From Candidatus Omnitrophota bacterium (lineage in GTDB: Bacteria > Omnitrophota > Gorgyraeia > Zapsychrales > Fredricksoniimonadaceae), in contig JBGAJA010000002.1 of the NCBI GenBank assembly GCA_044225175.1, positions 146,917 through 210,916 on the forward strand: 64,000 bases of DNA. Direction: 5' to 3'. A model generated the notes under the pieces. That model was not told the DNA's origin and made no database searches. It was given only the letters and a program-made list of their open reading frames with translations. Position numbers and translations under genes: made by a program. How positions within the stretch are numbered: the first letter of the stretch is position 1; every line of letters begins with the position of its first letter. Shown here piece after piece: positions 25,636 through 55,500 of the stretch.

Positions 25636-25638
25636 TTC

Positions 25639-33169: not shown

Positions 33170-33259
33170 GGAGAAGTTTTTTAAAAGTAATGGAAGCACA
33201 AGAGGGTTCGGAAATCTCATTTCGAACCCTCTACACTTTAACTAATATTAAGGATGATT

Positions 33260-33451: not shown

Positions 33452-33461
33452 GTGATCAGAC

Positions 33462-34183: not shown

Positions 34184-34200
34184 CATCCAGAAAGACATTC

Positions 34201-34539: not shown

Positions 34540-34545
34540 GAAGAT

Positions 34546-36171
34546 ATGTTTAATAGAAAATTCGTCAGATTCTTTAATGGCCCTTTCAAATCTCCACGCT
34601 CACAAAGCGGACAGGCTGTTATTGAAATTGCCCTTTTTGGCGCCATCCTGATCTTTTTAATAGGCGTTATTCTTCGCACTCATCTAAGTCATTCTTTTAG
34701 CACCAACCATCAAGTCAGGGCCATGAAGCTGGCTTTGCAGCAAAGTTATTTAGGCAGCGTCGGAAAGATTCCCAATAGTTCCAGAAACTCTGCCAGTATT
34801 CTCTTTATAGAAGACAGGCTCTCACCGGACTTAAATAAATTTGCAGCGATTGAAAGAAATCCATTTGTCGCCAATGGTTCAGGAACAATGACTGATCGAC
34901 TAAACTACCCAATCGATTTTGGGGAGGTAGGGCATAATCTTCCTATCATGGATATTTTTGTCAACGGCCAGCACTTCCCTTTGACGGTAGGGGCCTATGT
35001 CTTTAGAGTCATTTATCCGCAAAATGACACAGATGCAAAAGGAGATGCTTGTCCTCCTGATTTTATGGGGCCTGATCATGGTCCAGAATTTATCAGATGC
35101 CTTCGTCAGGAGCATGAATGGAAAGAAGGATCACCCACATTCTATCAACAGATTGTTAACGGAACACAAGACTATAACCCCCTCGCTTCCAAAGACAGTT
35201 GGGACCTATTACGCAATAATTGGGACAAAAATCGTCTCACTAAGCCTATTACGGGCAATGTTTTCTCGGATGATGTGGATGAAGGCATTATTCGTAATTA
35301 TATTGCCTGGCAGTGGAAGCCTATCAAAGGCGTAGGCTCAAGTCTTGACTTTGGTTCAGACGATAATCCTAACTATCCTTCAATGGACTTTTTAGGGAAT
35401 CTTAGAGAACAAACCGCTTATTATGTCAGTCAAAAACCTGTAGATAAATTATTGGCCATTTTAAGTTCACCTTCTCTGGCGTTTTATGAAATTAACCCTG
35501 GCGGCGGCGGTAGTTATGCAGCAGGAAACAGCGGGTACGTCTTATCGTTGACCGATGAATTGACTAATGCTCCAACAGGATTTAATTTTACAAACCCCAA
35601 AAGTTGTGACACAGGAAACGGTATGGGAGTTTTGTGCTTGACCCGCGCCCCATCGGCAGGAAATATTACAGGAGTTGTTGTTTTGGATAATCAGGCAGGA
35701 GATATTGATCTGGCCTATGATGATAAAACATCTCCTGGTCCTAAACCAGGTCTTATGCAGCAAATGGCCATTTACAGCTGGGTCGTTCCTCCGGATGGTA
35801 AAAAACAAGGAACATTCATGCAAATTAAAGAAGGAAAATTGTATAATCCTGAGACCCATCAAGTCGTGCGAAGCATTAGCAGCAAAGACCACGTGGATTT
35901 GATCTCACGCATGTTTCAACTGAGCAATAATACCCAGCGCTTTTGCAAGACAAGCATTATGTATGGATCAACTCCTGTTCCTTATTTGGCCGATCAAAGT
36001 CCTGATGCTAATCATCCTGTTCCAAATCCGGTTGAGGCATGTGGAGAGTGTAATAGTAAAAACATTAACAAAACTTGTTTTGATCCGGCCTCTCGGATTT
36101 TATTTATCAGGACATTGATAGGGGATGCAACCACACGCAAGTGGTTTACAGATGTAACCAAGGGATTATAA
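34546..36171 (+). CDS. TadG-like large pseudopilin (541 aa)
   Basis: Flp/TadE-like N-terminus '...SG|QAVIEIALFGAILIFLIG' followed by a roughly 480-aa domain. Its size matches TadG. Confidence 0.45.
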   Translation: MFNRKFVRFFNGPFKSPRSQSGQAVIEIALFGAILIFLIGVILRTHLSHSFSTNHQVRAMKLALQQSYLGSVGKIPNSSRNSASILFIEDRLSPDLNKFAAIERNPFVANGSGTMTDRLNYPIDFGEVGHNLPIMDIFVNGQHFPLTVGAYVFRVIYPQNDTDAKGDACPPDFMGPDHGPEFIRCLRQEHEWKEGSPTFYQQIVNGTQDYNPLASKDSWDLLRNNWDKNRLTKPITGNVFSDDVDEGIIRNYIAWQWKPIKGVGSSLDFGSDDNPNYPSMDFLGNLREQTAYYVSQKPVDKLLAILSSPSLAFYEINPGGGGSYAAGNSGYVLSLTDELTNAPTGFNFTNPKSCDTGNGMGVLCLTRAPSAGNITGVVVLDNQAGDIDLAYDDKTSPGPKPGLMQQMAIYSWVVPPDGKKQGTFMQIKEGKLYNPETHQVVRSISSKDHVDLISRMFQLSNNTQRFCKTSIMYGSTPVPYLADQSPDANHPVPNPVEACGECNSKNINKTCFDPASRILFIRTLIGDATTRKWFTDVTKGL

Positions 36172-36173
36172 AA

Positions 36174-36425
36174 ATGAAAAACAAAACAGCCCAATCCACG
36201 ATTGAATTTACTTTTGCCATGGTTGCGGTTGCTTTGTTGATTTTTTCTTTGGTCAAAACTTTTCGATGGGTGGGTATGGATTACGCCCAAAGCGCCTATC
36301 TTCAAGAACAGTCTAATATTTTTGTTCATAACGATAAGTGTGAACAAAGAGGCGACTGCTTTAGTTTAAACGCTGAAAACAATACGCGTGGACAGCGATT
36401 AGGTGCTTTTACAAGGAAGTATTAA
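36174..36425 (+). CDS. TadE-like pseudopilin
   Basis: MKNKTA|QSTIEFTFAMVAVALLIF (TadE 'QSTIEF' motif). Confidence 0.55.
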   Translation: MKNKTAQSTIEFTFAMVAVALLIFSLVKTFRWVGMDYAQSAYLQEQSNIFVHNDKCEQRGDCFSLNAENNTRGQRLGAFTRKY

Positions 36426-36426
36426 T

Positions 36427-39400
36427 ATGGATCAAAACACTAAGAAGAAAAAATATCGCGGACTATTATCATCATTTCAAAGAGGCCCCCAAGGGCAGAC
36501 ATCTTTGATTATGATTTTGATATTGGCTGCGGCTTTTATTTTTTATGCGATTTCCTTAAATTGGAGCAAAATTTCCAGTGTTAAAACAACGTTGTGGATG
36601 GCGAGTGTCACGGCCTCTGCTCAATCGGCGTCGATGTTTGCCAGCTATGGCGAAAGGGTCATTCAAGAGCAGCTTATTCCTTTAGGAGGCATTGAATACA
36701 ATAACGGGAATCTTAGGCATGAAGAAAATGGCCTAGGGGTCCTTATCTTTAAGATATTTATTATTATCGTTGTAGCTATTTTAACCTGGTATATGGGTGG
36801 GTATCCTGCGGCTATTCTTGTGGCAGCCATGATGACAACAAGTTTGGTCATTGAATACATGGTCATTCGGCCCATGACATTTTCGATGTGGAACAAGCTG
36901 CAGCAAAACCTTCAGCCTGTCGACCAATTCCGTGAGTCTGCAATCACGACGGGGATGCAGCAAATCGTCACCGACAGCGTAACTGTGCCGGACCGCTTTG
37001 ATTTAAATGTGAATGGTCTTTGGGGTGCATCGACAAATCCTTCGGACCCCATCAGTCGTTTTGCTTTGTTTTATACCGAACGATTAAAAGCCGTCAAACC
37101 ACCAGATACGGCAGGGATTGAAGCCTTTCAAACAGGCCTTAATAATTTAATCACTCAACCAACACCAGCTAATATCATGGGTCCAACACTAGAAGAGCCG
37201 GGACTTGGGTTTACCCCCTATTGCACAGGAAAAAATTCTTCCGACCCACAATGCAATCCTCAGTGCACAGGAATTTTCAATAGACCTGCACTAGGTAATA
37301 AATCTTCTGGGTTTGGATGGCGGTATACCAAAGATACTGACCAGATCACTTATTATGTTCCAGGACAATGTATTCAAGCTAATGGCACAAAGTATCGTCT
37401 GCAATATAATAGCGCAAAAGAAGGAGGCCCTAAAAAAGCTGATCCTAATGATCCAACTAATTCTTTTCGATACCGTTTAGGCTTCGACGACGAAATAGGA
37501 AAAAGTTTAAATAGCGACAAAACCAATGGCTCAATAGATGGCTCTCCCGTTTACCATCCGGCTACATCTTTAAAAAATGGACTTGTTTTTCCCATGCTTA
37601 ATCAAATGTATAAGATAGATCCTTCTATCTATGAGCCCGTGGCTCTTGGAGCTTTGAGTGCTGATCTTTCTAAAGAGGCTCAAGCGCAGTATTCAAAATT
37701 ATATACGGACAGCGTCACGCCCATGGCTAACTATTTGGCAGGTGATGTTGATTGCGCACAAATGAGAAACTCATCCGAAGGCTTTTATTGGAAAAAAGGG
37801 GCAGACCGCTATTGCTCAGGATTTGTGCAAAGCTATCCTTTAGAAGTAGCAAGTCTAGCCAATAAAAATGTCAGCTACGCTCCATCCACAGCAAGCCAAG
37901 AGCCTAATTATCATTGGCCATATTATCAGTGTCAATACATGCTTAACTCCCAAGGAGAAATTCAGCAATGCGCAGACAGTCCTAATAAGAAACTTTGGCC
38001 TCAAGACCGCATGGACAATTTGGTGTATCAAATCAACGAATTTATTCAATTTAACAATACCATTAAAGGGATGGACAAAAAAAGTTTGGTTGCTTCTTTT
38101 GATCAATGGTATCAAACTGTAATGCCTTTTATTGCTCCTCGATGTTCAGAAGGAAATAGTAATACGCCACTAGATCAATTTGTTTCGGTCAATTTTAAAC
38201 ACATGACGGTCTTTACAAGTGATGCGGCTATTTGCAATCCAGATGCTCAAGGATACATGTATCAATGGATTTATGATTTGCAGAATTGGCAGAAGCTGAT
38301 TAAAGACCCTGCGGACCCTAAAAAAGGGTGGATCAATCAAAGTTTTGGGGACCCAGCAAAAGATTTATGCAGTGGAAAACTTTCGAATTCGGACCCTATG
38401 AACCCAGGGATTGCAGAGTGTTTGGAGAATAAATCCATCTATACGAAACAATTGGATAAGTGCGATAATAATTTTCCTAAACCTACAGAACAGGATGAAC
38501 ATGGGCAATGGATTTATAGCAATGTGTATTTAAATCCAGAGTGCATTGAAGTCATGTACCATCGTCAAACCCAACCATCCAGATTTTTGACCACGTTATC
38601 AGGAACATTTACAAATATTCCTTCATTCCCGCCGCCTTCAGATTTTAAGTTTCCTGTGAATAATAAAGAAACCTATTTCGCTATTAAAGGCTGGGTTAAA
38701 GACAACCGTATCTTAATGGATGCAGTGTATAACAAGAAAATCGTTGTTCAGAATTTGTATAAGTATGCTCAGCAATCCGCTAGTCTTTTTGAAGAAGGGG
38801 CCCAAGAGTTTAGTCGATTCTTAGGTCTGGGAGCTCCGGCCTATGCACTGATGGATAGTGTTTCTGATCGCATAAGTTCGATCAAACGATTGCCTAGTTT
38901 TGCTATCTATGGGTGGAAGGACCATAAGGGACCTATTGGCAGTAATACCAATAATGAATTGTGGCATTTGGCACGTATTGAAGTGGCCCAGCCAGGTCGA
39001 TTGCCGTGGATTAAGATTACCAAACACGGGGCTTTAGGTTCTAATGTGCGCTATACCTATACCGATGGGCAGGGGGATGTTTTGGTCAGAGCCACCCGTT
39101 GGGACCAAAGTTTCGATGGAGGAATAGCCAATTTTGCTAATGGTCTTAAGATATGGAAATTTAGATATGGGAATCCTAAATATAAGGATACGGACACAAA
39201 CACCGGCGGAGAATTAGAGAATATGTGTATGGAGAAAGATACCGGTGCGGGAGGAGTAATATTTGGATATGGTCTTACTTCAGACACCAGAGCTGCATTG
39301 CAAGCGAATTTGCCTCATAATCCTTCTGTTCAAAGTAATTCTTCGGAAGGCAAGGCTTATTCAACGGCTTTCATGCTGAATTTAGATCCAAGAGCCAGCA

Positions 39401-39807
39401 CAGATAAGCTCACATCTCAGATCAAAGATCCAGTGCCTGATAAAAACACGTGCCATTTCGCAGATAAATGCGGAACATTAAATGACTATGCCGCATGCTG
39501 TGCGAAAGCGCCCTCGGGATATTATGGCAAAGACTGGCAGCAGTATTGTCAAAAAACAAATTTGGCTCGATGCCAGAAAAACAAGCAAATCAAAGAGATT
39601 ATTGATAATTTAAAAGACACAGAAGGTTGTTTTTATGGGGCTACAGATTTATTAAACACAGGAGTTCAATCTATTTCAGGGGCGCACTTTGGTGTCCCCA
39701 ATGAAAAACCCTATCACTTAGGTATATTCTTTCACAGTTCAGCAGACGCAAAAAAACAGGGAGTTTTTACAAGGGATACGTATAATGATCATTCCCAATA
39801 TGACTAA
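36427..39807 (+). CDS. Giant pilin-like protein (1126 aa): Flp/TadE-like N-terminal helix, a second TM segment, and a large Cys-rich extracellular domain
   Basis: N-terminus '...QG|QTSLIMILILAAAFIFYAI' after an AAGGAAG RBS. Second hydrophobic segment around aa 120-150. About 30 Cys, including a 'CCAKAPSGYYGKDWQQYCQKTNLARCQ' cluster at the C-terminus. Confidence 0.5.
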   Translation: MDQNTKKKKYRGLLSSFQRGPQGQTSLIMILILAAAFIFYAISLNWSKISSVKTTLWMASVTASAQSASMFASYGERVIQEQLIPLGGIEYNNGNLRHEENGLGVLIFKIFIIIVVAILTWYMGGYPAAILVAAMMTTSLVIEYMVIRPMTFSMWNKLQQNLQPVDQFRESAITTGMQQIVTDSVTVPDRFDLNVNGLWGASTNPSDPISRFALFYTERLKAVKPPDTAGIEAFQTGLNNLITQPTPANIMGPTLEEPGLGFTPYCTGKNSSDPQCNPQCTGIFNRPALGNKSSGFGWRYTKDTDQITYYVPGQCIQANGTKYRLQYNSAKEGGPKKADPNDPTNSFRYRLGFDDEIGKSLNSDKTNGSIDGSPVYHPATSLKNGLVFPMLNQMYKIDPSIYEPVALGALSADLSKEAQAQYSKLYTDSVTPMANYLAGDVDCAQMRNSSEGFYWKKGADRYCSGFVQSYPLEVASLANKNVSYAPSTASQEPNYHWPYYQCQYMLNSQGEIQQCADSPNKKLWPQDRMDNLVYQINEFIQFNNTIKGMDKKSLVASFDQWYQTVMPFIAPRCSEGNSNTPLDQFVSVNFKHMTVFTSDAAICNPDAQGYMYQWIYDLQNWQKLIKDPADPKKGWINQSFGDPAKDLCSGKLSNSDPMNPGIAECLENKSIYTKQLDKCDNNFPKPTEQDEHGQWIYSNVYLNPECIEVMYHRQTQPSRFLTTLSGTFTNIPSFPPPSDFKFPVNNKETYFAIKGWVKDNRILMDAVYNKKIVVQNLYKYAQQSASLFEEGAQEFSRFLGLGAPAYALMDSVSDRISSIKRLPSFAIYGWKDHKGPIGSNTNNELWHLARIEVAQPGRLPWIKITKHGALGSNVRYTYTDGQGDVLVRATRWDQSFDGGIANFANGLKIWKFRYGNPKYKDTDTNTGGELENMCMEKDTGAGGVIFGYGLTSDTRAALQANLPHNPSVQSNSSEGKAYSTAFMLNLDPRASTDKLTSQIKDPVPDKNTCHFADKCGTLNDYAACCAKAPSGYYGKDWQQYCQKTNLARCQKNKQIKEIIDNLKDTEGCFYGATDLLNTGVQSISGAHFGVPNEKPYHLGIFFHSSADAKKQGVFTRDTYNDHSQYD

Positions 39808-40243
39808 AAAGAACTTTAAGAACAATCAGGGAGCGAGTTTGATTGAGTATGCTTTTCTGATTATTCTTATTCTCTCAGCCATGTGGGTCATGAAAGACAT
39901 GATCAGTCGTGGAATTTTTGCCAAGTACAGGCAATCTGGAGAAAGTTTTGGATTTGGTCGTCAGTATGATGCTAAACGCACGAGTGTGTGCAGGCAGGAC
40001 GTCAAAAGTTATAAAGACGATGGTACAGTCAATGAAGTAAGCGAATTTTATGATGAAGATTGTTATCAAACCCGTGTTAGGCGTCCGGCGAGTTTCAATT
40101 TAGAAGCACCGGGAACCTGGAACACCGAAGGCGGATGCCCTGCATGTGACCCCGGCAACACATCGGATTCCAAAGCATGCTTTAAATGTGAGGATGACAT
40201 TAAAAAACAATGCGCTGTTGATCACGCATATTGTTTGCAATAG
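39800..40243 (+). CDS. Flp/TadE-family prepilin with a Cys-rich C-terminal domain
   Basis: ...QG|ASLIEYAFLIILILSAM; C-terminal 'CPACDPGNTSDSKACFKCEDDIKKQCAVDHAYC'. Confidence 0.55.
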   Translation: MTKKNFKNNQGASLIEYAFLIILILSAMWVMKDMISRGIFAKYRQSGESFGFGRQYDAKRTSVCRQDVKSYKDDGTVNEVSEFYDEDCYQTRVRRPASFNLEAPGTWNTEGGCPACDPGNTSDSKACFKCEDDIKKQCAVDHAYCLQ

Positions 40244-40249
40244 AATGAC

Positions 40250-40277
40250 GTAGAGACGCAAAATCTTGCGTCTCTAC
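40250..40277 (+). terminator. 12-bp perfect hairpin (gtagagacgcaa-aatc-ttgcgtctctac) closing the pilin gene array
   Basis: Strong stem but no T-tract. It may be a terminator or an RNA-processing element. Confidence 0.4.
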
Positions 40278-40295
40278 AGAAATATTTAAGGACAT

Positions 40296-41153
40296 ATGAT
40301 TACACTTATTTTATTTTTGATTTTTATTTCTTTTGCAGCATTGACGTATAGCCTTCTTCCCATCTTGACCAGAGGCGCAACAGACATCAATCAGCGTCAG
40401 GCCCAGCAGGTCTTAAATAATGCAGATCTTTATTTGCAAGATGCAGATTTGCAAAAGGCCCAACGCATTACGCTCGTCATGCCCGCTGTTCTGGCCATTT
40501 GTGGTTTCTTGTTTTTTCCAGAAAATCTTCGCGTTCCAGGGGCTATTATCGGAGTGATCGTTGGAATCATTATCCCGCGTATTTATGTTTCTAGCCTTAT
40601 CAGCAAAAGAAAAGAAAAGTTTAATGATCAGCTGGTTGATGCTCTGATGATTATGTCGAGTTCTTTTCGAGGGGGGCTTTCTTTGGTGCAGGCGATTGAG
40701 GCGGTCGTTGATGAAATGCCAGATCCTGTTAAGCGAGAGTTCGGAATTGTTTTGGGAGAAAATAAAATGGGCGTTTCTTTGGAAGAAAGCTTGACGCGTC
40801 TACAGGTTCGCATGCCATCGGTTGCCCTTCAACAAATGATTACAGCCATCTTGCTTGCTCGTGAAACAGGCGGTAATCTGCCTGTGATTTTCTCAAGGAT
40901 TGTCAGCACCATTCGAGAACGAAAGAAAATTGAACAAAATCTGAAGACATTAACCATTCAAGGAAAGATTCAAGCCGTTGTCATGACCCTCCTTCCTCTG
41001 TTCTTTGTGATGGGTGTTAGTGCGACGAATCCAAAGTTTTTTGATGTCATGTTTCGTCTCCCCGAAGGCAGGCAGATGTTAATGGTTTGTGTTGTTCTAT
41101 GGGTTGTTGGGGCTATATTAATTTGGAGAATCAGCAAATTTAAGGAAGTTTAA
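40296..41153 (+). CDS. tadB: Tad/Flp pilus inner-membrane platform protein TadB (T2SS-F family)
   Basis: 285 aa, polytopic, with a GspF-like cytoplasmic domain. It sits in the Tad locus. Confidence 0.75.
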   Translation: MITLILFLIFISFAALTYSLLPILTRGATDINQRQAQQVLNNADLYLQDADLQKAQRITLVMPAVLAICGFLFFPENLRVPGAIIGVIVGIIIPRIYVSSLISKRKEKFNDQLVDALMIMSSSFRGGLSLVQAIEAVVDEMPDPVKREFGIVLGENKMGVSLEESLTRLQVRMPSVALQQMITAILLARETGGNLPVIFSRIVSTIRERKKIEQNLKTLTIQGKIQAVVMTLLPLFFVMGVSATNPKFFDVMFRLPEGRQMLMVCVVLWVVGAILIWRISKFKEV

Positions 41154-41156
41154 TTT

Positions 41157-42062
41157 ATGTTAACCATGGCCATGTTGTTAGTTTTTCTAGCTATTTTTGC
41201 GGCGATCTTAGCTTTCATTCCTTTTGATAGTCGTCCCACATTAAAGTTGGACATGACATTGACGCCAAGCCCCTTTGGACAAGAAATACAGACCAAAAAG
41301 AAAAGCCCTCTTTCCGGTCTAGTAAGTCTTTTAAGAAAGGCGGCTTTTTTTAATAAGCCTTTTACCAAGTCGGATTTAGGACAAAGAATATTCAGAGATT
41401 TGTCCTTAAGTCAGACACCCATATCGACGGAAGAATTCCTTTTGATAAAACAAATTTTGGTTGTCGTCCTTATTTTGATTTCTATCAAGATCAATCCAGA
41501 CCCCTCCTTCTTAATGTTTTCTGTTTTAATGGCGGTTGCAGGTGGGTATATTCTTCCCGAATTCTGGCTACGTATGCGAGTTAAAAAAATTAAAGAGTCC
41601 ATTTTGCGTGATTTGCCAGATACGGTTGATCTTTTAGGTCTTTGCGTGAACGCTGGTCTTGATTTTATGATGGCCCTTCGTTATGTGGTGGAAAAGTCAC
41701 AACCCTCAGTCATCATCGAAGAGCTTAGGATCATGATGCAGGAAATCAATGTAGGTAAGCCTCGCAGGGATGCTCTGCGGGATTTATCTAGGAAATATGA
41801 AATGCCGGATTTGGCGACCTTCTCTCGTACCTTGATCCAAGCAGATCGCATGGGTACCTCGGTGTCAGAGGCCCTTAATATTCTCTCCGAAGATATGCGC
41901 GAAACCCGCTATCGCAGAGGCGAAGCCATGGCGCTCAAAGCCCCTCTTAAAATGCTTATTCCCCTGTTATTGTGCATTTTCCCAGTTGTGGCCCTTTTAG
42001 TCGCCGGCCCCATCTTCCTAGACTTCATGCACAACAACCCTCTACAGAACTTAGCCAAATAA
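41157..42062 (+). CDS. tadC: Tad/Flp pilus inner-membrane platform protein TadC (T2SS-F family)
   Basis: 301 aa, a paralog of TadB, in the locus position expected for tadC. Confidence 0.75.
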   Translation: MLTMAMLLVFLAIFAAILAFIPFDSRPTLKLDMTLTPSPFGQEIQTKKKSPLSGLVSLLRKAAFFNKPFTKSDLGQRIFRDLSLSQTPISTEEFLLIKQILVVVLILISIKINPDPSFLMFSVLMAVAGGYILPEFWLRMRVKKIKESILRDLPDTVDLLGLCVNAGLDFMMALRYVVEKSQPSVIIEELRIMMQEINVGKPRRDALRDLSRKYEMPDLATFSRTLIQADRMGTSVSEALNILSEDMRETRYRRGEAMALKAPLKMLIPLLLCIFPVVALLVAGPIFLDFMHNNPLQNLAK

Positions 42063-42083
42063 AAAGGTGTCAGACACCTTTTT
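42061..42083. repeat. REP-like palindrome copy 1: AAAAAGGTGTCAGACACCTTTTT
   Basis: Exact 23-mer, one of four copies. Confidence 0.75.
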
Positions 42084-42192
42084 ATTGACTATTTTTAGAT
42101 GAATAATTATCATTTTGTCATCTGATTCTCCCCATCAGAAGCAATCCATACCCCAATTGCTAAGTAATTTCAAAAAATCAAAATTCCTATCC

Positions 42193-42215
42193 AAAAAGGT
42201 GTCAGACACCTTTTT
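42193..42215. repeat. REP-like palindrome copy 2
   Basis: Identical 23-mer, 37 nt upstream of the RAYT start. Confidence 0.75.
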
Positions 42216-42251
42216 GACATTATCTAACCTCCCCGTTCAAGAAAGGTCAAT

Positions 42252-42935
42252 ATGCCTCGAAAACCACGAATCATCATCCCAGGAGAAATGTTTCATGTAA
42301 CCCAAAGAGGAAATTATCAACAACCTGTCTTTGAAGATGATCAAGACAGGGTAGTTTATTTAAAACTTTTACAAAAATATAAACAACAGCATGCTCTTAA
42401 TCTTTTTGCCTATTGCTTAATGAGTAATCATGTTCATTTGATTGTAAAACCAGAAGATCATACTTCCTTAGCTAAAACAATGGCCCATACCCATCAGAAC
42501 TATGCTCTTTATTTTCATAAAAGAAGAAAACGTCAAGGTCATTTATGGCAGCAAAGGTATTATTCCTGTTTGCTATATGGTCAGCATATTTTACAGGCCA
42601 TACGATATGTGGAAAGAAATCCAGTAAGGGCCGGTATGGTCGCTCAACCTTGGGAGTACGTTTGGTCCAGCGTTAACGCGCATCTAGGTAAAGTATATAA
42701 AATAATTACGTTAGAAGATAGTTCAGCTTTAATAAAAGATTCGGAATGGAAAGATTTTATTAGCTCTCCAGAAGACCTGACTCAAAATGATCAGCTTAGG
42801 CAAAGAACTCTCAAAGGATCTGTTTTAGGTGCGAAAGAAGACATTCAAGCTTTAGAAGAACGCCTAGGTCGCAAAGTCATCTTTATCCCTAAAAAAGTAA
42901 AGAAGATGTCAAAAAGGTGTCAGACACCTTTTTGA
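42252..42935 (+). CDS. IS200/IS605-family Y1 (HUH) transposase, REP-associated tyrosine transposase (RAYT)-like
   Basis: HUH motif 'SNHVHLIV', 'GHLWQQRYYS' catalytic-Tyr region, and about 60 aa of N-terminal similarity to TnpA_IS200. The C-terminus is translated through a REP copy. Confidence 0.8.
   Translation: MPRKPRIIIPGEMFHVTQRGNYQQPVFEDDQDRVVYLKLLQKYKQQHALNLFAYCLMSNHVHLIVKPEDHTSLAKTMAHTHQNYALYFHKRRKRQGHLWQQRYYSCLLYGQHILQAIRYVERNPVRAGMVAQPWEYVWSSVNAHLGKVYKIITLEDSSALIKDSEWKDFISSPEDLTQNDQLRQRTLKGSVLGAKEDIQALEERLGRKVIFIPKKVKKMSKRCQTPF
42912..42934. repeat. REP-like palindrome copy 3 (overlaps the RAYT 3' end)
   Basis: Identical 23-mer. Confidence 0.75.
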
Positions 42936-42984
42936 TGGTCTTAGGCAGGTCTTATTTGGGTGTAAATGGGTTTTACAGCTATTT

Positions 42985-43022
42985 TTCCAGTCTGGAACAT
43001 ATTTGGTTCATCCAGACTGGAA
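42985..43022. repeat. Inverted repeat ttccagtctggaa ... tccagactggaa (12-bp arms, roughly 13-nt spacer)
   Basis: Seen directly; function unknown. Confidence 0.4.
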
Positions 43023-43109
43023 ATTAGCTAAAAAGGTTATTTACGGTTAAATAATGGCCATTTAAGAAGATTATATAATTGCAGGCTGGCTTAATTGTAA
43101 AAATAGATC

Positions 43110-43132
43110 AAAAAGGTGTCTGACACCTTTTT
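43110..43132. repeat. REP-like palindrome copy 4 (central A to T variant)
   Basis: AAAAAGGTGTCTGACACCTTTTT. Its flank 'gattactattttta' resembles the copy-1 flank 'attgactattttta'. Confidence 0.7.
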
Positions 43133-43460
43133 GATTACTATTTTTAAGAAAGCCTTTTCTTGGAATGGGTGGATAAGAGGGGTTTTTTGGTTTCAAAAGG
43201 GGGTTGATATAAATTTAGGACGAACCGAAAAAAGCTTTCTTAGAAGGCACACCCCATCCTTTAAAAATAGATATTCCATAAACTATTTGATTTTAATAGG
43301 TTATAACTTAGAAAAAATAATTAAAGTGGTGGATGAAAATTATTTTTATGACATTTTATATATAAAAACTGATTTCAATTTTATTTTCTAGATTAATTTA
43401 AGTAGAATCGTAAACCATTGGTACTAAAGAGGATAAAATTGAAATAATATTTTGGAAAAT

Positions 43461-43539: not shown

Positions 43540-46500
43540 ATGGATAAAAACGAAGAATTCGAAAATCCAATTTCCTCTAACGAGGGCATCAAGTCTGATG
43601 GATCAGAGTCTGTATCTGCAGATAATATAGATATAGGCCACTCATCAGAATCTTCTTATTTGAAATTTCCAGAAAACCTTTCCCCCGTCGCTGCTAGTAC
43701 GAACCCCGAAGAAAGTTTTAATTCTATCGACGACAAAGACTTTAGAAATGGATCCGCCTTTGGCGGAGACCCAAGTCTCATTCAAATTCCACGCGCTGAT
43801 CAAAATCCATTTGTAAGTAACTTTAAACAATGGATCAAAGCGGTTGCTATTTTTGTATTAATAGTATTTATACCTGATCAAATAAGCTGGGCTTTTGGGT
43901 ATAATCCACAAGTCCTTTATAAAGATTTGCCTATTACAAGCGCCCCTATGTCATCGTCGGTGATGAATATGGCGGCCAATGACGCCGGCAAGATTTTACC
44001 TCACCAACAAATTTCCGGTTCCGTTGAATATTTGCTTAACCAAATCAAAGACAAAGAAAATCTTCGTGTGCAGTTGAACGTAGAGAATCCTAAAGATGCA
44101 AACAAATCCGCAGCTCATCAACTTGAAGTGGACACAAAGATTAAATTCGACAAACAAACCATTCAAGAAATTACAAAATGGTTGTCTCAAGAGAATCTAA
44201 ACATTCTTAATTGCGGTGTTTATTCCTTGCAAAAATTGCTTGAGCACAGAGGCATCAAACGCTCGCTGGAAGAAATTGCTGTTTTAACAATCGCCACCGA
44301 TTTAATGACCAACATTATTAAAATCGGTGAACCAAAACTCAAGACCACATTATTCTCAATGGCTAAAGTTGGAGATGCCTTAGGTTTAAATTACAAAGCC
44401 ATCAAGCTAGAGGCAAAAGACGAATTAACATTACCCACGCCTTTCATTGCCTCCATCAAAGGCGAACACTTTGTGACTGTCAAAAAAGTGACAGACACAC
44501 AAGTTTTTGTAGAGGACTTAGGCCAATCCAAAACATTAGATAGAAGAATTTTTGAAGACAGCCTGACTGGTTTTGCTTATGCCAATGTTGGCGAACATTT
44601 TAAATCTGAACTTTACGAAGTAGTCCCTGAAGCTTTGCAAGCATTTGTCTGGGGAGATAAATGGCGTGACCGCACCGGAGACTTGCCTGGATTGACCAAC
44701 TGGAACCAAGTCATTATTACTGGGGTCATTCAAGTGGCCATGTGCTTTATTCCCTTAGCTGGAGAATATGTGGGTGCATCGGCCGGAATCACAGCCACAA
44801 CAACCATGGAAGTCACCAATAGCGCAGGTGAATTAATTGCAGCCGGTGCTATCGCCATGGCTGCCAGCCAATTAGCCGGAAACATTGCAACAGTTTGTAC
44901 GATGAAAGGTGCCTGTAATGCCACGACGGGATTCTTATTAAGTACGGCGCTTTCTGTTGGTTTGACCATGGGAGCAAGCTCTGCTGCAGGTATAGCTCAC
45001 GGAGGATTTGCCAATAATATTTTAGGAAAAGAAGCTAATCCAGTTTCAAAGTTTGCCGTAGATTTTGCTTTTAATTTTTCTATGGGACTTGTCGCTGGTT
45101 ATGCCAGCCTTGAAGCAACCCGAGCTGTTCAAGAAGCCATTTGTAAAGATTCGAAAAAATGCTCAGGGACTCAAGCCATTCTCTCCCAAGCACTCGGCAC
45201 TATTGCTGGATCAGTTGCTTCCATTGCAGCAACCACAGTCACTGCCTATGGGCTATCTCAAATGCCTGGCAAATTTGGTGAAGCCGTTTCAGACACTTAT
45301 GGATTCAGAGAAAAGAATGCTGCCAAGGCCGCTCGCGAAAATGTGGTGAATAATCAACCTGAAATTAAGCAGAGTGGGGATGCTATCATTAAAGCAGCTA
45401 CCATAGATAATCTACCCGCTGACCAAGTCCTGCAAATAGATCCTCATTTTACAGACACACCTCAAAACAGGGCGATTGTTCAAGACTTGCAAAGTCCAAC
45501 TCCTGGAACTGTTAATGAAGCCATAGGTAAAGTCAGAGAAAGCCTTACTCAAGACTATAGAAATGAAGGTGTTGGCACATGGGCAGCGGATGATGCCATT
45601 AAAAATAATCCTGATTTGGCCCCCCAACGCGCAGAAATGATTAGAGACCTGAAATCCGGTGTGGTTTTAGGAAGTGATGGAAACTATAGTTTTAATAATC
45701 CAACTTTAGAACCAGCTGTTCTTCATGCCATGGACAATGCCAATGCCTGGCACAATACTTCTTTTGGCCAAGTGATGTCCGACATGGCCATCAGCCAATT
45801 GCCTGCGATCGCCGGACAGTTAACAGGAATGATTGCCCAAATCGTCGCCTACAAAGCAGGAGGCGTTGATCCTGATAGTGGAATGTCCCAAGGATTAAAT
45901 CAATTCTTTAGTTCAGCAGGAAGCTTGGCGGCAGGTTACGGCATGCAGCAATCAGGCATGGTCCCAAGAAGCACATCCGAAAATATTTCAGCAGCGATCA
46001 AAACAGGTCTTATCCGATCTGCCTTTGCCTTAGGTTTAGGAATTGTGGAAGATAAGATTATTGAGAAACCAGCCAAAGGGTCTTCCGCCCGCGCTCAATG
46101 GCGTTATGAAGAAAAATTGGCCCAGCTTCGCGCTTTCAATTTTGTGGCCTCCAGCTTTTTAACAGGGGCCATCATCGCAACCACCGATGAACAAAATACC
46201 GGTATCGAAGGCGTATCCGTAGACTCTATGAAGAACGCCATTGCCCAGCGTGCCCGAGCCAAAGCCTCTCAAGAAGCTGAAAACAATCCCTACATGATTA
46301 ATTATGCAACCCAAGAAACAGATACTCCACAAATGGATACGTCTAAGGGCCCATTATATGGAAAGATGATGGAAGATTTTAAAACTAAAGCAGGAGAAGA
46401 TGCTTACCAAGCAACCATGGACAGTATGAATGTTTCCTGGGGACGTCGAGCTTTGTTTTCAAGCCTTCATATAATGGGCAACACGGACAACAGCTTTGTG

Positions 46501-49500
46501 GCTAACTTCATGGGAATTCCTGAATCACGAAACTATTACACCAATGGCAGCTGGGGTCCAACCCAAGGAGCCTATGGAGTCACACCTGGACCCAACAATT
46601 TTGTGGCCTACAGTAATACACTACAGCAGTTAAGCGGATGGACAGTTAACATGGCCCTCCAAGCTGATCAAATGTGGAAAGACATGAAGGAGACCAATAA
46701 TTTGATCACAGGAATGCCAACGAGTGCAACTAATGTCGGCGGCCTAGTTGTGGCTGACTATATTGGCGCTCCTCAGAGAATGACCCAGGAACGCCTCCAT
46801 GATCAATGGGTGTTGCAATTATTCAGTTCCAAAATGTTAAATCCCAATCGATTGAATTACAGCTATATCAACTCGACTCTTCAAAATGCCAACATTGATA
46901 ATTATGGTCACTATTTGCCAGGGGCCATTGTAAGCGCCTTAACCAAACCAAAAGTTTATGATGTCACCAAGAATGAAGACGGAAGCTTCTCTTATATAAA
47001 CGAGGACAATCAGAAAGTTACTTTAGATAAACAAGAGGAACAAGATATTTCTTACAAACCTGTTTGGGATGATAAGGGCAATCAAACCACCGCTCCAATT
47101 TATGTCGATGATAAAGCCCAAATTGCTGCCATCAAATGGGGATTGCCTGTGGTTCGTATGGCAACGGTATTAGGTGACAATGGCGGATTTAATTTAGTGC
47201 AAGGCGATGTGACAACCATGAAAAGCGGCGTGACAGGTAAGGATGAAACTGTGTATGTGGGTCGAGGATTTAGAGGAGTTGAATTAGATGTGATCAATCA
47301 TCGCGGCAATGGATTCATTGAAAGAACTTGGGTCAATCCTAATGATGAGAGAAGAGAACATATCCGCATAGGCGGCAAAGCTTACGTCGATCCAGCAGAA
47401 TTAGAAAGCCAATTAGAAACGTTACGTAACGAAGGAAAGACGCTGGAGATTCAAGACCGCACAGGTAATCTTTTAACAATTACGGCTAAGACTGAGGAAG
47501 AACTCAAAAGTAAAATCGACAGCTTAGATGATGACACCGTCTCAAATTTTGCCACAAGCTATGGTCCATCAGTCAGCAATGAGGCTGTATCGCAAGAAGG
47601 CAGAGACAAGCTCAAACAAAAATTGAGTCAAGATTTCCAAGCTCAAAACAGCGGTCCTCAGAAATGGGGCTATGAATATGACGTCTCTGGACAAGCCATA
47701 GGTTTTAAAGATACAGACGGAGAAGCCATTGCGCTCAATCAAGTGACCCAGCGATTGGTTGAGAAACATAACCATCAAATGAATGAAGCAACCCAGGGAC
47801 TGGTACCTATTGTTAATGGGGCCATATCTGCTCCATTAGTCAATGCCGATGGACGTTCCTTAGCTGCAGAAAATGGAGGTAATAAAGCTGCTCAATTATT
47901 GGCTGGAAGAAATTTCTGGGTGGAAGGTACAACAGAAAGCCAAGAAATGCAAAAGTTCATCAAAACCTCCGGAGGCATTCACAATATTATTGGGGGAGAT
48001 GGACGAGGGTTTAATTTCAATTATAGAGGTACGTACGATAACTCCTCTTTAAACTTGCAGCTTCCAACAACTACCCATGAAATGAAGGATGGCAAAGCCC
48101 AGCCTGTATTCGTCAACCAAGCCATTTTTGGAAATAAAAATTTCAGCAGCATGTACATGACGGGGGCTATGTCGGATGGAACATTCTGGTCTACCAAGGA
48201 CGGCTCAGCCATTTCTTCGGCATTTTTAAGTTTCGATTCCCTAAGCGGAAGGATTGCAGGGTATAACGAGAGTATTGTAAGTTCGAAAGAAGGTCTTCAA
48301 TACAATGATTTCCAAAACGCTTATCAACAACAATTGGCCCCAGATCAAAAATTTGATTCTGCTCAAATGGCCGCAGCTGCTGGTCCTTTAGCTGCCCAAC
48401 GATATTTAGCTGCCCATGCGTTTGCGGCTCGCTTAGGGACTTTGAATGCTTCTCCAGCCAGTTCGATGGTTGCTTTCCAAGCCTTTGGACGTGATGACCA
48501 AAGGGTCACAGACACGCCGCTGTATGAGGACCAATTTGTCTACAGTCCTCAAGCTAAGCAAAATGCAGAAGAACCCGATACGTATGAAGGTTCAGCTATA
48601 CCTACATCTCACGTAGATAGCAAAAAGCTGAATATTCAAGGCCAAGGATTAGTGTATTCCTCGGCCAATCAAGCCAACATGTTTGCCATCAATAAAAGCG
48701 TTAATCAGAACAGTCGATTCACTTCTGGTTTGATGACCACATCGCCTTTGAATGTCCTCGATCAAGGAACACTAACAGCAACCGTTAATCATGGAGAAGT
48801 CGTTTTCAAATCATTTGCCGAAGATGCATCCGGTAACGTCACCGATTTCGCTGGGGCTCCATCTATTCAAGGAGATACCGCTACAAAATCCAAGGCATTC
48901 GCAAACCAATTACAAAGTCCAAGCCCGTTAATGTTGTCAGATGTACAAGCGGATAATGAGGCATGGAAAACTCAATTCCCAGCATTAGATATTTTCTCAA
49001 CTACCAATAGCAATTCTCCCCAATTGAAATCCATGATTGAGGAAGGTATCAAAAACACTAACCCAGAGAACTCTACTTTAACGGTTAATTTTAATAATGG
49101 ACGTTTGGCCAATATGAATTTCCAAGGATATTTCGGGACCCAAGCAGGATCATCCTCCAGTGGAATATTATATGAATCCCAGGAATCTTCTGGAGGCAGC
49201 AAGGATGAAGGTTGGAAAGGGGCCACAATCGCCCCATTTGTCTTTCCTTCTGAAGCTGCTTTGCAAAGCAATCCAACCTTACGTAAATTAGCGTTGAATG
49301 ACAACTCCCAGGTGGCCGCTACATTTAATTCTCAATCAGGCGGTTTACAGGTCAAGTTTGGTAAGGGAAGTATTCTATATTCTGACTCTACAGGTGGTTT
49401 GAATCCATTTAATCCAACATTAGATTATAAGGGCCAAGCGTATTCTCAAAATGAATACAACAGTGCTATTTATGTTGGCCAAAATTCCGATGGAAGCCCA

Positions 49501-52500
49501 ACGCACATGAGATTCGGGTGGGTGGCAGATAGAGATCAGAATGGAAACATTAAAAAAGATGCTCGAGGAAATACAGTTTTTTTAAGTCCTACATCTACGC
49601 TGTTAGTTGATAAAACTACATTTACCAATAAAGAAATATTTCTTAATAATACTTCTCGATTGGATTTAGAAACATTCACATCTGAAGAGTCCCACGTCTT
49701 TAAAGTCAATGATGCATCCAAGCCATTTGTCTGGAACAGCGGGAACTGGGAATTACCCGCTGATAGCAAGTCGCTATCTGTGGGTGTCAATTATGTCAAA
49801 AGTCAGTTAGGCAAAGATTTAACTGATCAGAAGAAAGTTGCGGACGCCAATGCCATGATGGCTTCCTCGCAATTAGGACTAACGCCAATTAGGGGTGTGA
49901 CTGAAGATGAACAAAAGAAATTCTATCAGGCTGTTTACAGCGATATCAAAGCTGGTCCAGGAGGTGTGTTCCTTTATCAACCTACGCCAAGTGAAACACA
50001 CAATCAGCTTTTAAGTAATATCTTTCTAAGTCCTGTTTTAAATACCAGCTTAAGCAATCCTTTATCTCAAATTGGAGTTGGTCAAGTCATCAATAATATG
50101 GAAGGAAGTGTATCTAATACAGGAGATTTTGCCCAAAGTGGTTCTCATTCCATTTTGCATGATTTAAGAAGCAAATTCGATCAAAATCAATCCCCGCAGC
50201 CAACAGCTAATGCTGATCAGGCGCCCGCAAGTGTTCGTCTTCCTGCTGGAGACAAAGCCACAACAACCATTAATCCGCTTGTTCAAGGCTATGTTAATCG
50301 TGTGGACACGACAGCTGGAGGCGTGTGGTATGGAGAAAGTTCAAGGTCTTTACATAACAATGTGACAAGTGAAAACAGTCTTATACTAGAGAATGAACCT
50401 GAATATGCCATCTTAGGACAGGCCCAATTTAATGTGGGAGATCAAACACATTCATTTAGCGCAACAACATATTTTAGACCCAATAGTACAAGGATTGTCG
50501 GTCAATTAGGTCAAAACGGATACACATTAAGAGGTGTAGGCAATGCAGAATCAGCGATGGATATGTTTGACGGTGGATATTTAGCTGTTTCAGATAATGG
50601 GCCACATCCAGGTTTAGGGTTGGGATATGCTCGAACCATTGGCATTGATCGCGTGACGAAAAATGGCCAGGAAATTTCCAATGGTTTATGGACAGCTAAT
50701 GTGGGCTCTGTTCGAAAAGCAATTGGTTCTATTCTAGGATTTCCAGGACGCAGCGATGGTTCATTTAGTTTAGAAGACGGAAAGATGGTTGTTTCCTCAG
50801 ATACCGCAACCAACAATCTTCTAGAAGGCAAAGCTTCGTTCCAAGGATTTGCCCGTGCCGAAAATGGTGTGGAAGATGTAGCCATGAATTTCAACAGTCT
50901 TCAATATACGCCTAATAATGAAATCATGTTTGTAGCAACTGCTAAAGATAATGCCCAAGAAGGTAAATTCCCTATTTCTGGAGAAGCTTTTATAGGGGGA
51001 GCAAATCCTTCTAATGGCGCAGCTGGAGCAGCTGCAGAAAAAACAGATCCTGGTATTGCTAATATCGCCCGCCTTAGAAATCCACAAGGAAACAAAGATG
51101 TAGTCTTGGCCCTCGTCGGGGGTACAGGTGGAAATGCCAATGAACAATTAGGTGTTCTTTACTCGACCAATGGATTTACATTTAATCCTAATGCGGAAGG
51201 TTCCAAGTATTCATTTGTTAATGGAACCAACAACAGCAATCGAGTTTATTTTGGAGACCACAATTCCGCTTGGGGGCTTGGTTTTGGTATTGAAGGTGGA
51301 CGTAAAGTAGGATTAGAGGGTAGCGAACCAACCTATTTCAATAACACCCGCCAAATCAATGAAGCTGGAACAATCACCGACGAGGAACAAGGTTTCACAT
51401 ATGTCTTTGAAGGGGACGCCAAGAAGGGTTCATGGAATTTAGCTAAAGAAGACAGCTTGTTCCCAGACACGATGAATAAAGGTTTGACTCCACAAAGACA
51501 GGCCGTAATTTATAGTGGAAAAGCTAAGGGTATTGGGATCACTCAGAATTATGTTGATTTCATGATGAACCAAGAAGGAACGCTTCAGTATCTACCTTTA
51601 AATGCTAACCATGCTAAAATTCCAAGAACAGTCGTGGCAGACACACCCATTGATTCTTCTTTAGATTTTGAAACTTCCCAAGGCATTGCAGCCCGCGCTA
51701 GCGCGGATACGGGGATTGGTCTGACTGCGTTCAATGCACCAGCAGAGTTATCGACTCAAAACACTGCGGAATTTACAAGTCCAAATTCATTTGGAGATAG
51801 TACACCTAAAACAAACAACACGTCTTTAATTGAAACAGCCCTAAGTTCCAAACCAGTTTCCCAAACAAATGATCTGGGTATTGATTTACTTTTACCTCGA
51901 CAAGCATCTTCTGCCATATCCAACATGGATTCAAGCAGATCTCCTCAACAAATTTTGACCGCTCCTGAAGACCCTGCTTTTGAATCAGTCACAGGAAGTG
52001 GACTTACACGCCAGGTTGGCACAACAGCTAATGGTACTCCTATCTATGAAACAGAAATATCTTCGGATGACAGTTTGGTTGCAAGGGCCCCAGAAAGTGT
52101 AAGAGACGTAAATCAAATCACATTGTCCTATGCCCCTATGTATCAGGGTTTTAACCATCTTTTTGAAGGTCAATTCCAAGCTGAAAAATTAGGCAGCAAA
52201 AACCAATTCATTTCCGGTGTCCAAACGGATGCTCAAGGCAATTTAACAGGTGGTTATATCGTGGCTGCTGAAAACCATGAGTATAACAATCCAGCCAGCT
52301 TGACCAATCGTCCTTTGGCAGGATATCAAGTGTGGTTAGGCCAAGACGGATTTGCCAAACGCGGCATGAGAAGCGGCTGGGTGAACATGACAGCCACAGG
52401 TACAGCTAACCTAGCATTAAAAACAGGCGGTGTTGTTCAGGCAGAAGGATTGTTAAGCGGCATTAATTTTATGGCGGTTGAGGGTGTCGGTCAGCCTAAG

Positions 52501-55500
52501 TTTTTAAATTTCAATGTAGCTCAAGCCCAGATCGATGGCAGAAATTTTGATGTCACATCCGGTGTTTATAGCGAAGGGGTTAATAGCGGCAAACCTTTTG
52601 TGGATGTAACAGGCGAACATATGCCTCTTGTCTTATCAGAGATGTCTGCCCCACGATCTGTTCCAAGTGCATCTTCACCAACAGACAGTGAACATACCGA
52701 TACACAAAATCCTTACCGTGATCCTAAGATCACTGGACAATTAATGGTCGATGCCACAAGCAATGAATTTATGACAGCTGCTCAAAAGGCAGGATACAGG
52801 ACCATGAATGTTGTTAATGGTACAAGCGATGTCACAGAGGTCAATGGTCAAGAACGTGTTAGTGTAGGGATATCTAATCTTAATAATCCATCATTAGGAT
52901 TCTCAGGAGATTTTACCAACACGGTCATTGGCACACAAGGAAATCAACCCTTGACATATGGTGTGCAAGTGGATTCAACAGGCAAACCATTAGCACGATT
53001 CTATGCACAAAACGACAATGCAATCAATGATCTGATTGCCTTTGATTCCAGTGCAACGCCTGTCAATATCGGCGGCGGGGCCCGTGGCGTTGGCGGCAAT
53101 GAAGTTGTATTCCTTCATCAAGCCACTGTTCAAGGCCAAGACGGCAGGGCGCAACAAACCAAATATGCCCTTTCTCAAGGTGTGAACGTTAAATGGAATG
53201 CTCAAGGGGCTATTGAACAATTAAATGGATTCAACCATGTAGCCACAGATAATGAGGGGACAGGGGCTAATGCCACACCTAACTGGCAATTGGCCACATC
53301 CAAGATTGACAATGGCAAAGCTGTATTCTCTTTAATAGGAGACAATGCTCATGGAAGTTTCTTCTTACCTCAAAGTGTCTCCTCTTCGGATGATGCAAAG
53401 CAAGCTGGTAACCCAAATCAACCCAAAGCGCAGGATATTAATGCTACACAATTAAGTGCTTCTATTGCGGATGGTGTAGTTGGACTTCGTGGAGACGGAC
53501 TAGCTTATGATTTGACATTCGGCCATAAAGGAACAGGCTCTATTCAAACGGATTTAAGGAATGTCAACATTGACAACAATACTGGACTCACTGATTTGGC
53601 CTATGGCTTACAAACCAATATCAACTCCAAAGACCAAACAAGCACAACAAATGCTTTGATTGCAGATAATGAACGTCAATTGTCATTTAACGGGGAAGGA
53701 CAAATTTTAAATAAAAATGTTTCTGCCAAACCAGCTGATATGGATTCAACTACCTATCGTGAGTTGGCTTCCACCAGGGCCAATTTGATCGGCGATGTCC
53801 AAAGCGCTTACCAAGCATTCGATGCTGTTAAGACAAGTAAGAACGATGATCAAAGACAAGCTGCAGCCAAAGAATTGGTCACGGCTTTAGGGGAACTTCA
53901 AAACTTTTCTTTGACCGACGGAAAATTCTTTAATCATGCCTCCGAGCTATCTTCCAATATTTCTTTTGCCATAAGCGAAGTTGAAAAAGCAGCCGCTAGC
54001 CCTGTGCAATCTCAGAATAACCAAGAGCAAGCCGTGCACAGTATTTATTTAAATGAAATCAAAGATCTTCAGAATAAAAAAGCCCAACTCTCTCAAACGC
54101 CAACCGTCCAAGAGTTAGTTGATAAAGGTGATAATGATCCAATTAAGAGACAAAAAGCCGATGAAAACAGGAAAGAACTGGACCAAGTGGAAGAACGTTT
54201 AAACCGCTTGATCAATGGCGGGGAATCCATTACGGAAATGGAGCATGTGAATGACATCGCCAGCGGCAATTTAGATATTTCGACCATACAACAGAACAGC
54301 TTCTTAAGCGCTTTGGGGGCCATGAAAACATATGACACGGCTGTTGCTACTCAAGACATGGGCAAAGATAAAATGGGCGAGGCTTCTCAAGCAGCGTTCT
54401 CACAAGCTTTTGCAGACCATGCAGCAGGGACGGCCTTATCCAATTTAAATAATGATGATATGTACAACACCGTGCATCATGAATTTCAACACCAAAACAT
54501 CAATCCTGGACAGGGAGAAATTGTTGCCTTCAACAAATTGTCTAATCTCTTCTCAGCAGATCCAAATAGCTTTAATGCCTTTGTTCCAAAAGAATACACA
54601 GATTCTCCGTATGAACGACGAGTGATGGCTGAGAGAATCATTGCCGCTAATCAAAACGGCGATTATGCCGCAGAAGTGGCTATGGAAGGTTTGGGATATT
54701 CGCAGCATAAATTATTGACTCTGGCAGGTTCTCTTTCAGACTTAGCCTCCATTGCAGGAATCCACGTAAGCAATCCAATTGCATTTAACACTTATCGCCA
54801 AACAGATAATGAACGATTCATTGAAGATGTGGTCAGTGGAAAAATTGCATTGAATGGTAATTTCGGTTTGTTAGATCAAATGGATCGCATCAAACAAGAT
54901 GAATTAACTGGAGTTTCAGGTGGAGTTACCAAAGCTGCCCAATGGGTCTCAAATTTTGGATACACATTCTTTGTCCCAACGGATGATGCGTTAAGTCAGA
55001 TGACGAATACCGGCATGGCCCTTCATGCCTCTGGTCCTGCTTCCTTAATTGCATCAGTAGTCACCGCACCTATTTCATTGGCAGCCGCTGGTTCTAATGC
55101 GGCTAGAATTACAGCCACAGAAATTGCAACGGAAGCTGCTGCAAATTCTGGAGTCAGAGCCGCAGGTAGTGCCGTTACAGAGGCTGCTTTGAATACAGGA
55201 GCTAAGAGTGCAGCGAAGTTTTGGTCTACATCGGTTAATCCAATGAATGTGGTAAATTCACTTTCTGGAATCAATTCTGCCAGAGGACTTAGTACAGCAG
55301 CCCTTTATCCTGTGATGAGAAGAGTAGGATTTACCGCAGGTAGTGTGGGAATTGCTAACGTGAGCAATTACATCGCTCACGGCGAGGCCTTATCTTCGGC
55401 CGAAAGCGGTATGGTGGCTGCCGGTGCTTTTGGTACAGCAACTGCCTTTGATGTGTTAGGGCAAGCCAATATGTTTAAAGTTAATGCAGCTGGTCAAACA

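Follow-up and report, generated by a model that had tools for sequence, protein, structure and literature searches.

The window analysed in this study, a 64-kb stretch of contig JBGAJA010000002.1 from a Candidatus Omnitrophota bacterium, covers a part of a bacterial chromosome near its origin, with yidC, dnaA, dnaN, gyrB and gyrA found at 10.9–21 kb. Its distal part contains an open reading frame (ORF) on the plus strand that begins with the ATG at position 43540, right behind a stop codon, and whose translation continues without a stop through base 64000 to encode more than 6,820 residues. The at least 20,460 nt open from this codon to the end of the window lie above the minimum of 20 kb for a giant ORF. 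The choice of start codon is supported by the homologue P0001, which begins alike, with a similar opening sequence MAKNEDF.... Our investigation concerns the N-terminal module of the encoded giant protein, where a peptidase of the C39 family, the sole Pfam domain in the visible 6,820 residues, is placed between two membrane helices (Table 1).

The presence of a cysteine protease with C39 or papain-like fold at this position had been proposed in a first-pass annotation of the sequence, and this assignment, which we regard as almost certain, is borne out by a profile match above threshold, by the predicted fold and by a conserved triad in register with that of LahT150. Translation of the plus strand between 44152 and 44545 exactly reproduces the two strings quoted in that annotation, ...TKWLSQENLNILNCGVYSLQKLLEHRGIK... 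and ...ASIKGEHFVTVKKVTDTQVFVEDLGQ, and the codons TGC and CAC are found at the places where the catalytic Cys and His had been located. When searched as isolated domain, the protein matches the Pfam family PF03412 (Peptidase_C39) with 46.9 bits (E-value 3.1e-12) and in longer sequence contexts with 37.9–42.1 bits, at a gathering cut-off of 22 bits, and up to an E-value of 10 no other family in Pfam is matched by the domain, including C39_2, C70, transglutaminase and deubiquitinase (DUB) families. Matches in NCBIfam are marginal and confined to the C39-bearing NHLM exporter, FapD, HlyB and FilB. A phmmer search of the single domain against the sequences of the PDB gave no match, and it was only the profile of the family that reached LahT150 (E-value 0.014).

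The fold is illustrated in an AlphaFold2 (AF2) model of residues 118–392 (m14e393f89460), which was built with 38 family sequences and is characterized by a mean predicted local distance difference test score (pLDDT) of 83.9, with values above 90 in the core, and a predicted template modelling score of 0.81. All of the 20 matches obtained with Foldseek in the PDB at an E-value of at most 0.001 are C39 peptidase or C39-like domains, comprising PCAT1, LahT150, ComA, a Vibrio C39-like domain and HlyB. The model best resembles the solved double-glycine peptidases, as PCAT1, LahT150 and ComA were all found with a probability of 1.0 and a target template modelling score (TM-score) of 0.72–0.73. HlyB is represented by the entries 7sgr and 3zua, the latter of which, its isolated C39-like domain (CLD), shows a target TM-score of 0.66. 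With respect to the extent of the domain, the initially proposed limits at residues 205 and 335 cover the core but proved too short, since the Pfam match spans residues 224–345 and the confidently modelled globular unit, of roughly 230 residues, extends from about residue 148 to 377 (43981–44670). Part of this larger unit is a family-specific N-terminal extension, which in the model consists of a helix (residues 154–168), a hairpin of two strands (residues 176–181 and 193–198) and a second helix (residues 205–215). Matches of a linker helix to the ribosomal protein eS17 were weak (E-values of 0.07–1) and are regarded as chance.

The putative active site is composed of Cys225, His310 and, as likely third residue located 16 positions behind the histidine, Asp326, which align with Cys27, His101 and Asp117 constituting the triad of LahT (PMC6363468). 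In a comparison of the family profile with LahT150, LNCGVYAL pairs with LECGAASL and EHFVTV...D with NHFVVL...D. In this alignment, the stretch containing His and Asp is marginal (16.6 bits, with a whole-sequence E-value of 0.014) and the stretch containing Cys scores below zero, with both being in register. Among 38 database homologues, and counting the sequences that cover each site, the Cys is found in 36 of 36, the His in 34 of 34 and the Asp in 33 of 34 cases. A similar picture is obtained for a species set of 30 sequences, combining 29 loci of different species in GTDB with the window, where Cys225 and His310 are conserved throughout (both 30/30) and Asp326 is replaced in a single case by Glu (29/30). 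Asn224, the residue preceding the cysteine, is invariant. The Cys225-His310-Asp326 peptidase is probably catalytically competent.

The retention of Cys225 is notable since the giant protein is otherwise nearly free of this residue. In the 6,820 amino acids, cysteines are found only at positions 225, 402, 453, 459, 535 and 541 (0.1%). The subsequent residues 542–6820 (45163–63999) form a run of 6,279 positions without a single Cys, and a similar scarcity, with Cys contents of 0.08–0.3%, is found in orthologues of the giant protein. Such composition suggests a polypeptide that would either be extracytoplasmic or constrained by its export.

The C39 domain is bracketed by membrane helices, as the transmembrane helices TM1 and TM2 stand on either side of it. 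Strong hydrophobicity is found in two segments only, which are those listed for both helices in Table 1, whereas moderately hydrophobic clusters of helices are located at residues 390–572, 751–883 and 3725–4281. The limits of TM1, TM2 and the helices up to residue 602 were taken from a second AF2 model. As annotated, the domain follows a membrane anchor and belongs to a giant protein, with the hydrophobic residues 101–119 preceding it in an ORF that exceeds 6,820 codons. On its N-terminal side, TM1 follows an acidic tail whose length varies between 34 and 99 residues among the 12 sequences listed. The domain is further flanked by two motifs, a juxtamembrane sequence at the end of TM1 and a post-domain sequence shortly before TM2. 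The latter has the form QAFVWGDKWRD..LPG, with the residues from Q367 to W375, D377, P383 and G384 being invariant (alignment A1), and in the AF2 model it packs against the C39 domain, with pLDDT values of 70–95 up to about residue 377. Both SWAFGYNP and AFVWGDKW..LPG equal the triad in their conservation and constitute the top conserved stretches outside of the C39 core. In the region following TM2, a pair of cysteines with a conservation of at least 80%, Cys453-x5-Cys459 (C..KGAC; 44896–44916), lies on the short loop that connects two hydrophobic helices and could form a disulfide bridge or a metal site.

Table 1. Features of the giant ORF and of the preceding locus, with positions numbered from the first base of the window.
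Feature	Residues	Coordinates	Strand	Basis and remarks
Rotamase_2 peptidyl-prolyl isomerase (PPIase) gene		23790–24785		precedes RcpC at the tight adherence (Tad)/type II secretion system (T2SS)-like locus
Tad/T2SS-like pilus-secretion locus		24811–42062	+	Pfam; G-xxxx-E-Y Flp motifs; synteny
Five Flp-type pilin genes		32425–34539	+	Flp signature G-xxxx-E-Y
Sixth Flp-type gene		39785–40243	+	Flp-type class III signal motif
TadB/TadC-like genes		40296–42062	+	two T2SSF genes
Giant ORF		43540–64000	+	ATG start; open at window end; last full codon ends at 63999
Acidic N-terminal tail	1–94	43540–43821	+	7 Lys/Arg vs 18 Asp/Glu; variable length
TM1, hydrophobic helix	95–119	43822–43896	+	hydropathy peak of 1.99 at residues 101–119; AF2 helix
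Juxtamembrane motif SWAFGYNP, end of TM1	116–123	43885–43908	+	at least 95% conserved (n=30); invariant in alignment A2
Family-specific N-terminal extension	154–215	43999–44184	+	AF2 helix, beta-hairpin, helix; pLDDT 79–96
Peptidase C39 core	224–345	44209–44574	+	PF03412 match; Foldseek PCAT1, LahT150, ComA
Cys225 codon TGC, motif L-N-C-G-V-Y	225	44212–44214	+	aligns with LahT Cys27
His310 codon CAC, motif E-H-F-V-T-V	310	44467–44469	+	aligns with LahT His101
Asp326 codon GAC, likely third triad residue, His+16	326	44515–44517	+	aligns with LahT Asp117
Post-domain motif QAFVWGDKWRDRTGDLPG, shortly before TM2	367–384	44638–44691	+	at least 95% conserved (n=30)
TM2, hydrophobic helix	388–414	44701–44781	+	hydropathy 1.85 at residues 390–408; AF2 helix
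Five more Ala/Gly-rich helices of moderate hydrophobicity	429–602	44824–45345	+	AF2; includes Cys453-x5-Cys459

The giant gene is the final gene of a conserved Tad/T2SS-like locus. This locus encodes RcpC/CpaB, a secretin, a TadZ-TadA fusion, DUF192, Flp-type pilins, two large TadG-like ORFs and TadB/TadC-like proteins, and the order of pilins, o541, o1134, o152, TadB, TadC and giant gene found in the window is shared by about 20 related loci. Two of its genes encode unusual fusions, in one case of a secretin with a C-terminal TonB_C domain (25639–27606), in the other of a TadZ-like ParA/MinD ATPase with TadA (T2SSE; 27771–29930). The six Flp-type paralogues mostly carry the motif G-(Q/A)-x-x-x-E-Y, with the first (32425) containing an Ala instead of the Gly. 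No prepilin peptidase of the A24 (TadV) type was found among the scanned ORFs of the window. A gene for a type IV pilin or pseudopilin with N_methyl motif is located on the minus strand at 8634–9119, near parA/parB and apart from the Tad-like locus, and its presence implies that another part of the genome encodes a conventional A24 peptidase. The window further contains, behind tadC and ahead of the giant gene, a gene for a tyrosine transposase of the REP-associated type (RAYT; 42252–42935), which matches the NCBIfam family NF047646 with 80.6 bits (cut-off 80) and also the Pfam family Y1_Tnp. The 19-nt palindrome AAAGGTGTCWGACACCTTT is found four times around this gene, at positions 42063, 42195, 42913 and 43112, with no others being present in the 64 kb. 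This element of RAYT and repetitive extragenic palindromes (REP; 42058–43136) appears to be an insertion specific to the window since it is missing from all 31 related loci (31/31).

The named database homologues of the N-terminus originate from metagenome-assembled genomes of Omnitrophota, save one that is labelled as Elusimicrobia, and two of them carry the NCBI name 'cysteine peptidase family C39 domain-containing protein'. Their identity to the window protein is 46–59% for the nearest relatives. With each GTDB species represented by a single genome, a scan has revealed 31 related loci, with a best identity of 58–59%, most of which are labelled as Omnitrophota or Omnitrophica, eight as Planctomycetales, one as Elusimicrobia and one only as 'bacterium'. 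In 28 of these 31 loci the orthologous ORF reaches the end of the examined DNA without a stop, in the longest case over more than 3,700 residues. A profile search in 1.84 billion representative proteins has detected 204 clusters at E-values of at most 1e-30, including many fragments of 2,000–7,800 residues. One of the sequences, the 3,237-residue fragment P0079, contains several related internal C39 modules (VVNCASxxL ... DHAVVVTK) amid Rhs/YD-like repeats, illustrating that these modules are not confined to the N-terminus. In another case, P0041, an apparent fusion of T2SSF with the N-terminus looks like a chimera of assembly and was set aside. Within the window protein, the residues 3725–4281 form Gly/Ala-rich helices of moderate hydrophobicity that possibly constitute a second membrane-anchoring region. 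A block at about residues 3900–4500 (55200–57000), which takes in helices of this cluster, has no match in Pfam and is conserved in the locus L011 (38% identity) and in L003 and L017.

The N-terminal C39 domain of giant proteins of the 'Archaeovorin' type in Omnitrophota has already been described, as have the signal peptides predicted beside it and the T2SS-like locus upstream of the giant genes, with gspD/E/F, rcpC, a Rotamase_2 PPIase and small genes with class III signals (West-Roberts et al., 2023; 10.1101/2023.11.21.568195). In the same study, cleavage by the C39 domains was proposed for the giant proteins or for substrates other than these. An architecture cluster with PF03412, consisting of 24 proteins, was also found among the long proteins of Omnitrophota (preprint 10.64898/2026.06.07.730766), and the layout of the window resembles the placement of the Tad locus in V. 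archaeovorus, where it is located at 12–30 kb of the chromosome (Seymour et al., 2023). The finding of a C39 domain at the start of a giant protein from Omnitrophota is in this respect a rediscovery, and the window provides another example that is at most 59% identical to known sequences. It shares with the described proteins the giant ORF, the N-terminal C39 domain with an adjoining segment resembling a signal peptide or membrane helix and the upstream locus with Rotamase_2, RcpC, secretin, ATPase, GspF/TadBC and genes with class III signals. It differs in the RAYT/REP insertion after tadC. The described proteins contain SecA_DEAD and enzyme domains further along their chain, together with many clusters of membrane helices; in the first 6,820 residues of the window protein, neither SecA_DEAD nor glycosyl-transferase nor other enzyme domains are matched in Pfam, with the gene running past the end of the window. 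New in our study are the invariance of the triad, the membrane bracket of two helices, the two flanking motifs, the absence of the canonical Gln and the negative searches for canonical double-glycine sites described below.

Among proteins of known structure, the exporters of the PCAT/AMS type (PCAT1, 4RY2/6V9Z; LahT150, 6MPZ; ComA, 3K8U) share with the window domain the fold and a triad in register, with the same spacing of 16 residues between His and Asp, at a sequence identity of only 17–22%. In contrast to these exporters, the distance from Cys to His is 85 instead of 74 residues, the domain is preceded by a membrane helix and by the additional N-terminal helix and hairpin, and no match to ABC_membrane or ABC_tran was found in the 6,820 residues. 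The helices that follow the domain also show no three-dimensional similarity to the PCAT membrane domain. A model extended by these helices gave a longer Foldseek alignment, but with a root mean square deviation of 24 Å and without improvement of TM-score or E-value, and a PCAT-like membrane domain behind the peptidase was for this reason dismissed.

We propose, with a probability of roughly 60%, that the N-terminal module of this giant protein in Omnitrophota acts as an active, membrane-tethered C39 processing protease. Since TM1 and TM2 tether the domain at both ends and the conserved aromatic motifs are located on the side of the domain, the active site would be held near the surface of the membrane. 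In PCAT exporters, C39 domains clip a cargo polypeptide upon its entry into the path of translocation. By analogy, the module would most likely catalyse the limited proteolysis of a polypeptide at the membrane face after a site with small residues. As its substrate we favour the giant protein itself, which could be cut in cis, or by the module of another copy, while it is being inserted and matures. That such self-processing, raised as autoprocessing in the first-pass annotation, would be the main role of the domain is a more tentative proposal, to which we attribute a little less than even chances and which is the likeliest of the roles considered.

Several observations weigh against this proposal. 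Canonical leader-like sites, which we scored by hydrophobic residues at the positions -4, -7, -12 and -15 and an acidic residue at -8 preceding G-G/A/S and counted from a score of 4, are not enriched in the 6,820 residues, with 1 site observed at 1.3 expected from shuffled sequences. For the stretch around this lone good site at residue 3794 there is no detectable match in any related locus, and the only match nearby, in L011, begins about 100 residues further downstream. The conserved block at residues 985–1140 contains no Gly-Gly, and the sequence SAFGGD (residues 72–77), considered as candidate double-glycine leader site, was rejected since it sits in an insertion specific to the window that is absent from homologues. 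The topology is equally ambiguous, as counts of positive residues in the 30 sequences place the domain outside when based on TM1 and inside when based on TM2, and the assignment of a membrane side by the positive-inside rule was due to this disagreement abandoned. Finally, the canonical Gln found six positions ahead of the cysteine in PCAT exporters is not conserved, with the equivalent position 219 varying between N, E, D, G, S, K and Q. This absence is not regarded as disqualifying since the role of this Gln as oxyanion-hole residue was doubted for LahT in the description of its structure (PMC6363468).

Other roles of the domain have to be weighed against its action as processing protease of the giant chain. 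It is unlikely, though the most serious of these alternatives, that it would act in trans as a protease maturing different products of the Tad/T2SS-like locus, such as Flp-type pilins, pseudopilins or secreted cargo. The tight conservation of the gene order from the pilins via TadB and TadC to the giant gene, and the lack of a TadV-type peptidase among the scanned ORFs, would be in line with such a function, and West-Roberts et al. have left room for 'other protein substrates' (10.1101/2023.11.21.568195). The stand-alone C39 peptidases FapD and FilB are likewise encoded beside an extracellular fibre or pilus system, but the domain of the window is fused to a giant protein and its scores in both families (FapD, NF058616: 14.6 bits, E-value 0.014; FilB, NF050078: 12.4 bits, E-value 0.076) remain far below the respective cut-offs of 330 and 475. 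A replacement of the absent TadV by the C39 domain was also discarded in light of the A24 peptidase implied by the type IV pilin gene and of the pilin leaders themselves, which are short, end with K/R/Q/S-G instead of Gly-Gly and do not contain the amphipathic helix that is recognized by C39 domains (PMC6363468). We consider it highly improbable that the module is a catalytically dead CLD, which would tether or chaperone an unfolded polypeptide in the manner of HlyB. This option was mentioned by West-Roberts et al. (10.1101/2023.11.21.568195) and it draws on the presence of HlyB among the fold matches and on the missing Gln. RTX (repeats-in-toxin) exporters such as HlyB share with the window domain its fold and an association with very large exported proteins. 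However, the essentially invariant Cys, His and Asp are kept in the family, and the domain is thus not a degenerate CLD. The catalytic cysteine is reportedly absent from the CLD of HlyB, a result attributed to Lecher et al. and the year 2012, which counts against an equivalent role, and the retention of Cys in a protein that avoids this residue argues for a functional thiol.

An effector with deubiquitinase or transglutaminase-like activity that is delivered to prey or host, as suggested in the first-pass annotation, appears scarcely plausible. Folds of clan CA are common to DUBs and transglutaminases and Omnitrophota are presumed to live by predation or parasitism, but besides the missing matches to the corresponding Pfam families, structures of DUBs were only found by Foldseek at E-values above 0.07 and with TM-scores of about 0.2. 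Moreover, the domain does not reside on a deliverable end but between two membrane helices in a protein of the producing cell itself, and the prey, as far as known or suspected, consists of archaea and bacteria that lack ubiquitin. The odds are similarly remote for a hydrolase with C39 fold acting on a non-peptide substrate, for example as a glycosidase-like enzyme on cell-wall polymers. In a report from 2026, glycosidase activity is described for a C39-like archaeal protein (PMC13642728), and giant proteins of Omnitrophota have been linked to the degradation of cell walls (10.1101/2023.11.21.568195). That archaeal protein is reported to contain a Q-C-H motif, whereas the family of the window lacks the Gln and has a full Cys-His-Asp triad, and the solved structures that most resemble the window domain are without exception peptide-processing domains.

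An extended scenario, in our view less likely than not, would regard the giant gene as encoding a polyprotein, in which the membrane-clamped C39 domain serves as built-in maturation protease that cuts its own or a neighbouring chain, nascent or already inserted, at non-canonical sites on the face of the membrane. The released pieces could then be passed to the co-encoded Tad/T2SS-like secretin machine, and the invariant QAFVWGDKW might be part of a surface for substrate handling or autoregulation.

For the question of how bacterial proteins of 10,000 to more than 100,000 residues are made, exported and used, a conserved protease with intact triad at the start of such a protein offers the most obvious experimental handle, with Cys225, His310 and Asp326 as targets for mutation, residues 148–377, approximately, as soluble construct and two invariant flanking motifs. 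Should the giant chain be cut by the domain, the size of the protein would say little about the size of its working units, and in the polyprotein scenario, what are called 'giant proteins' in Omnitrophota would be precursors rather than single functional chains.

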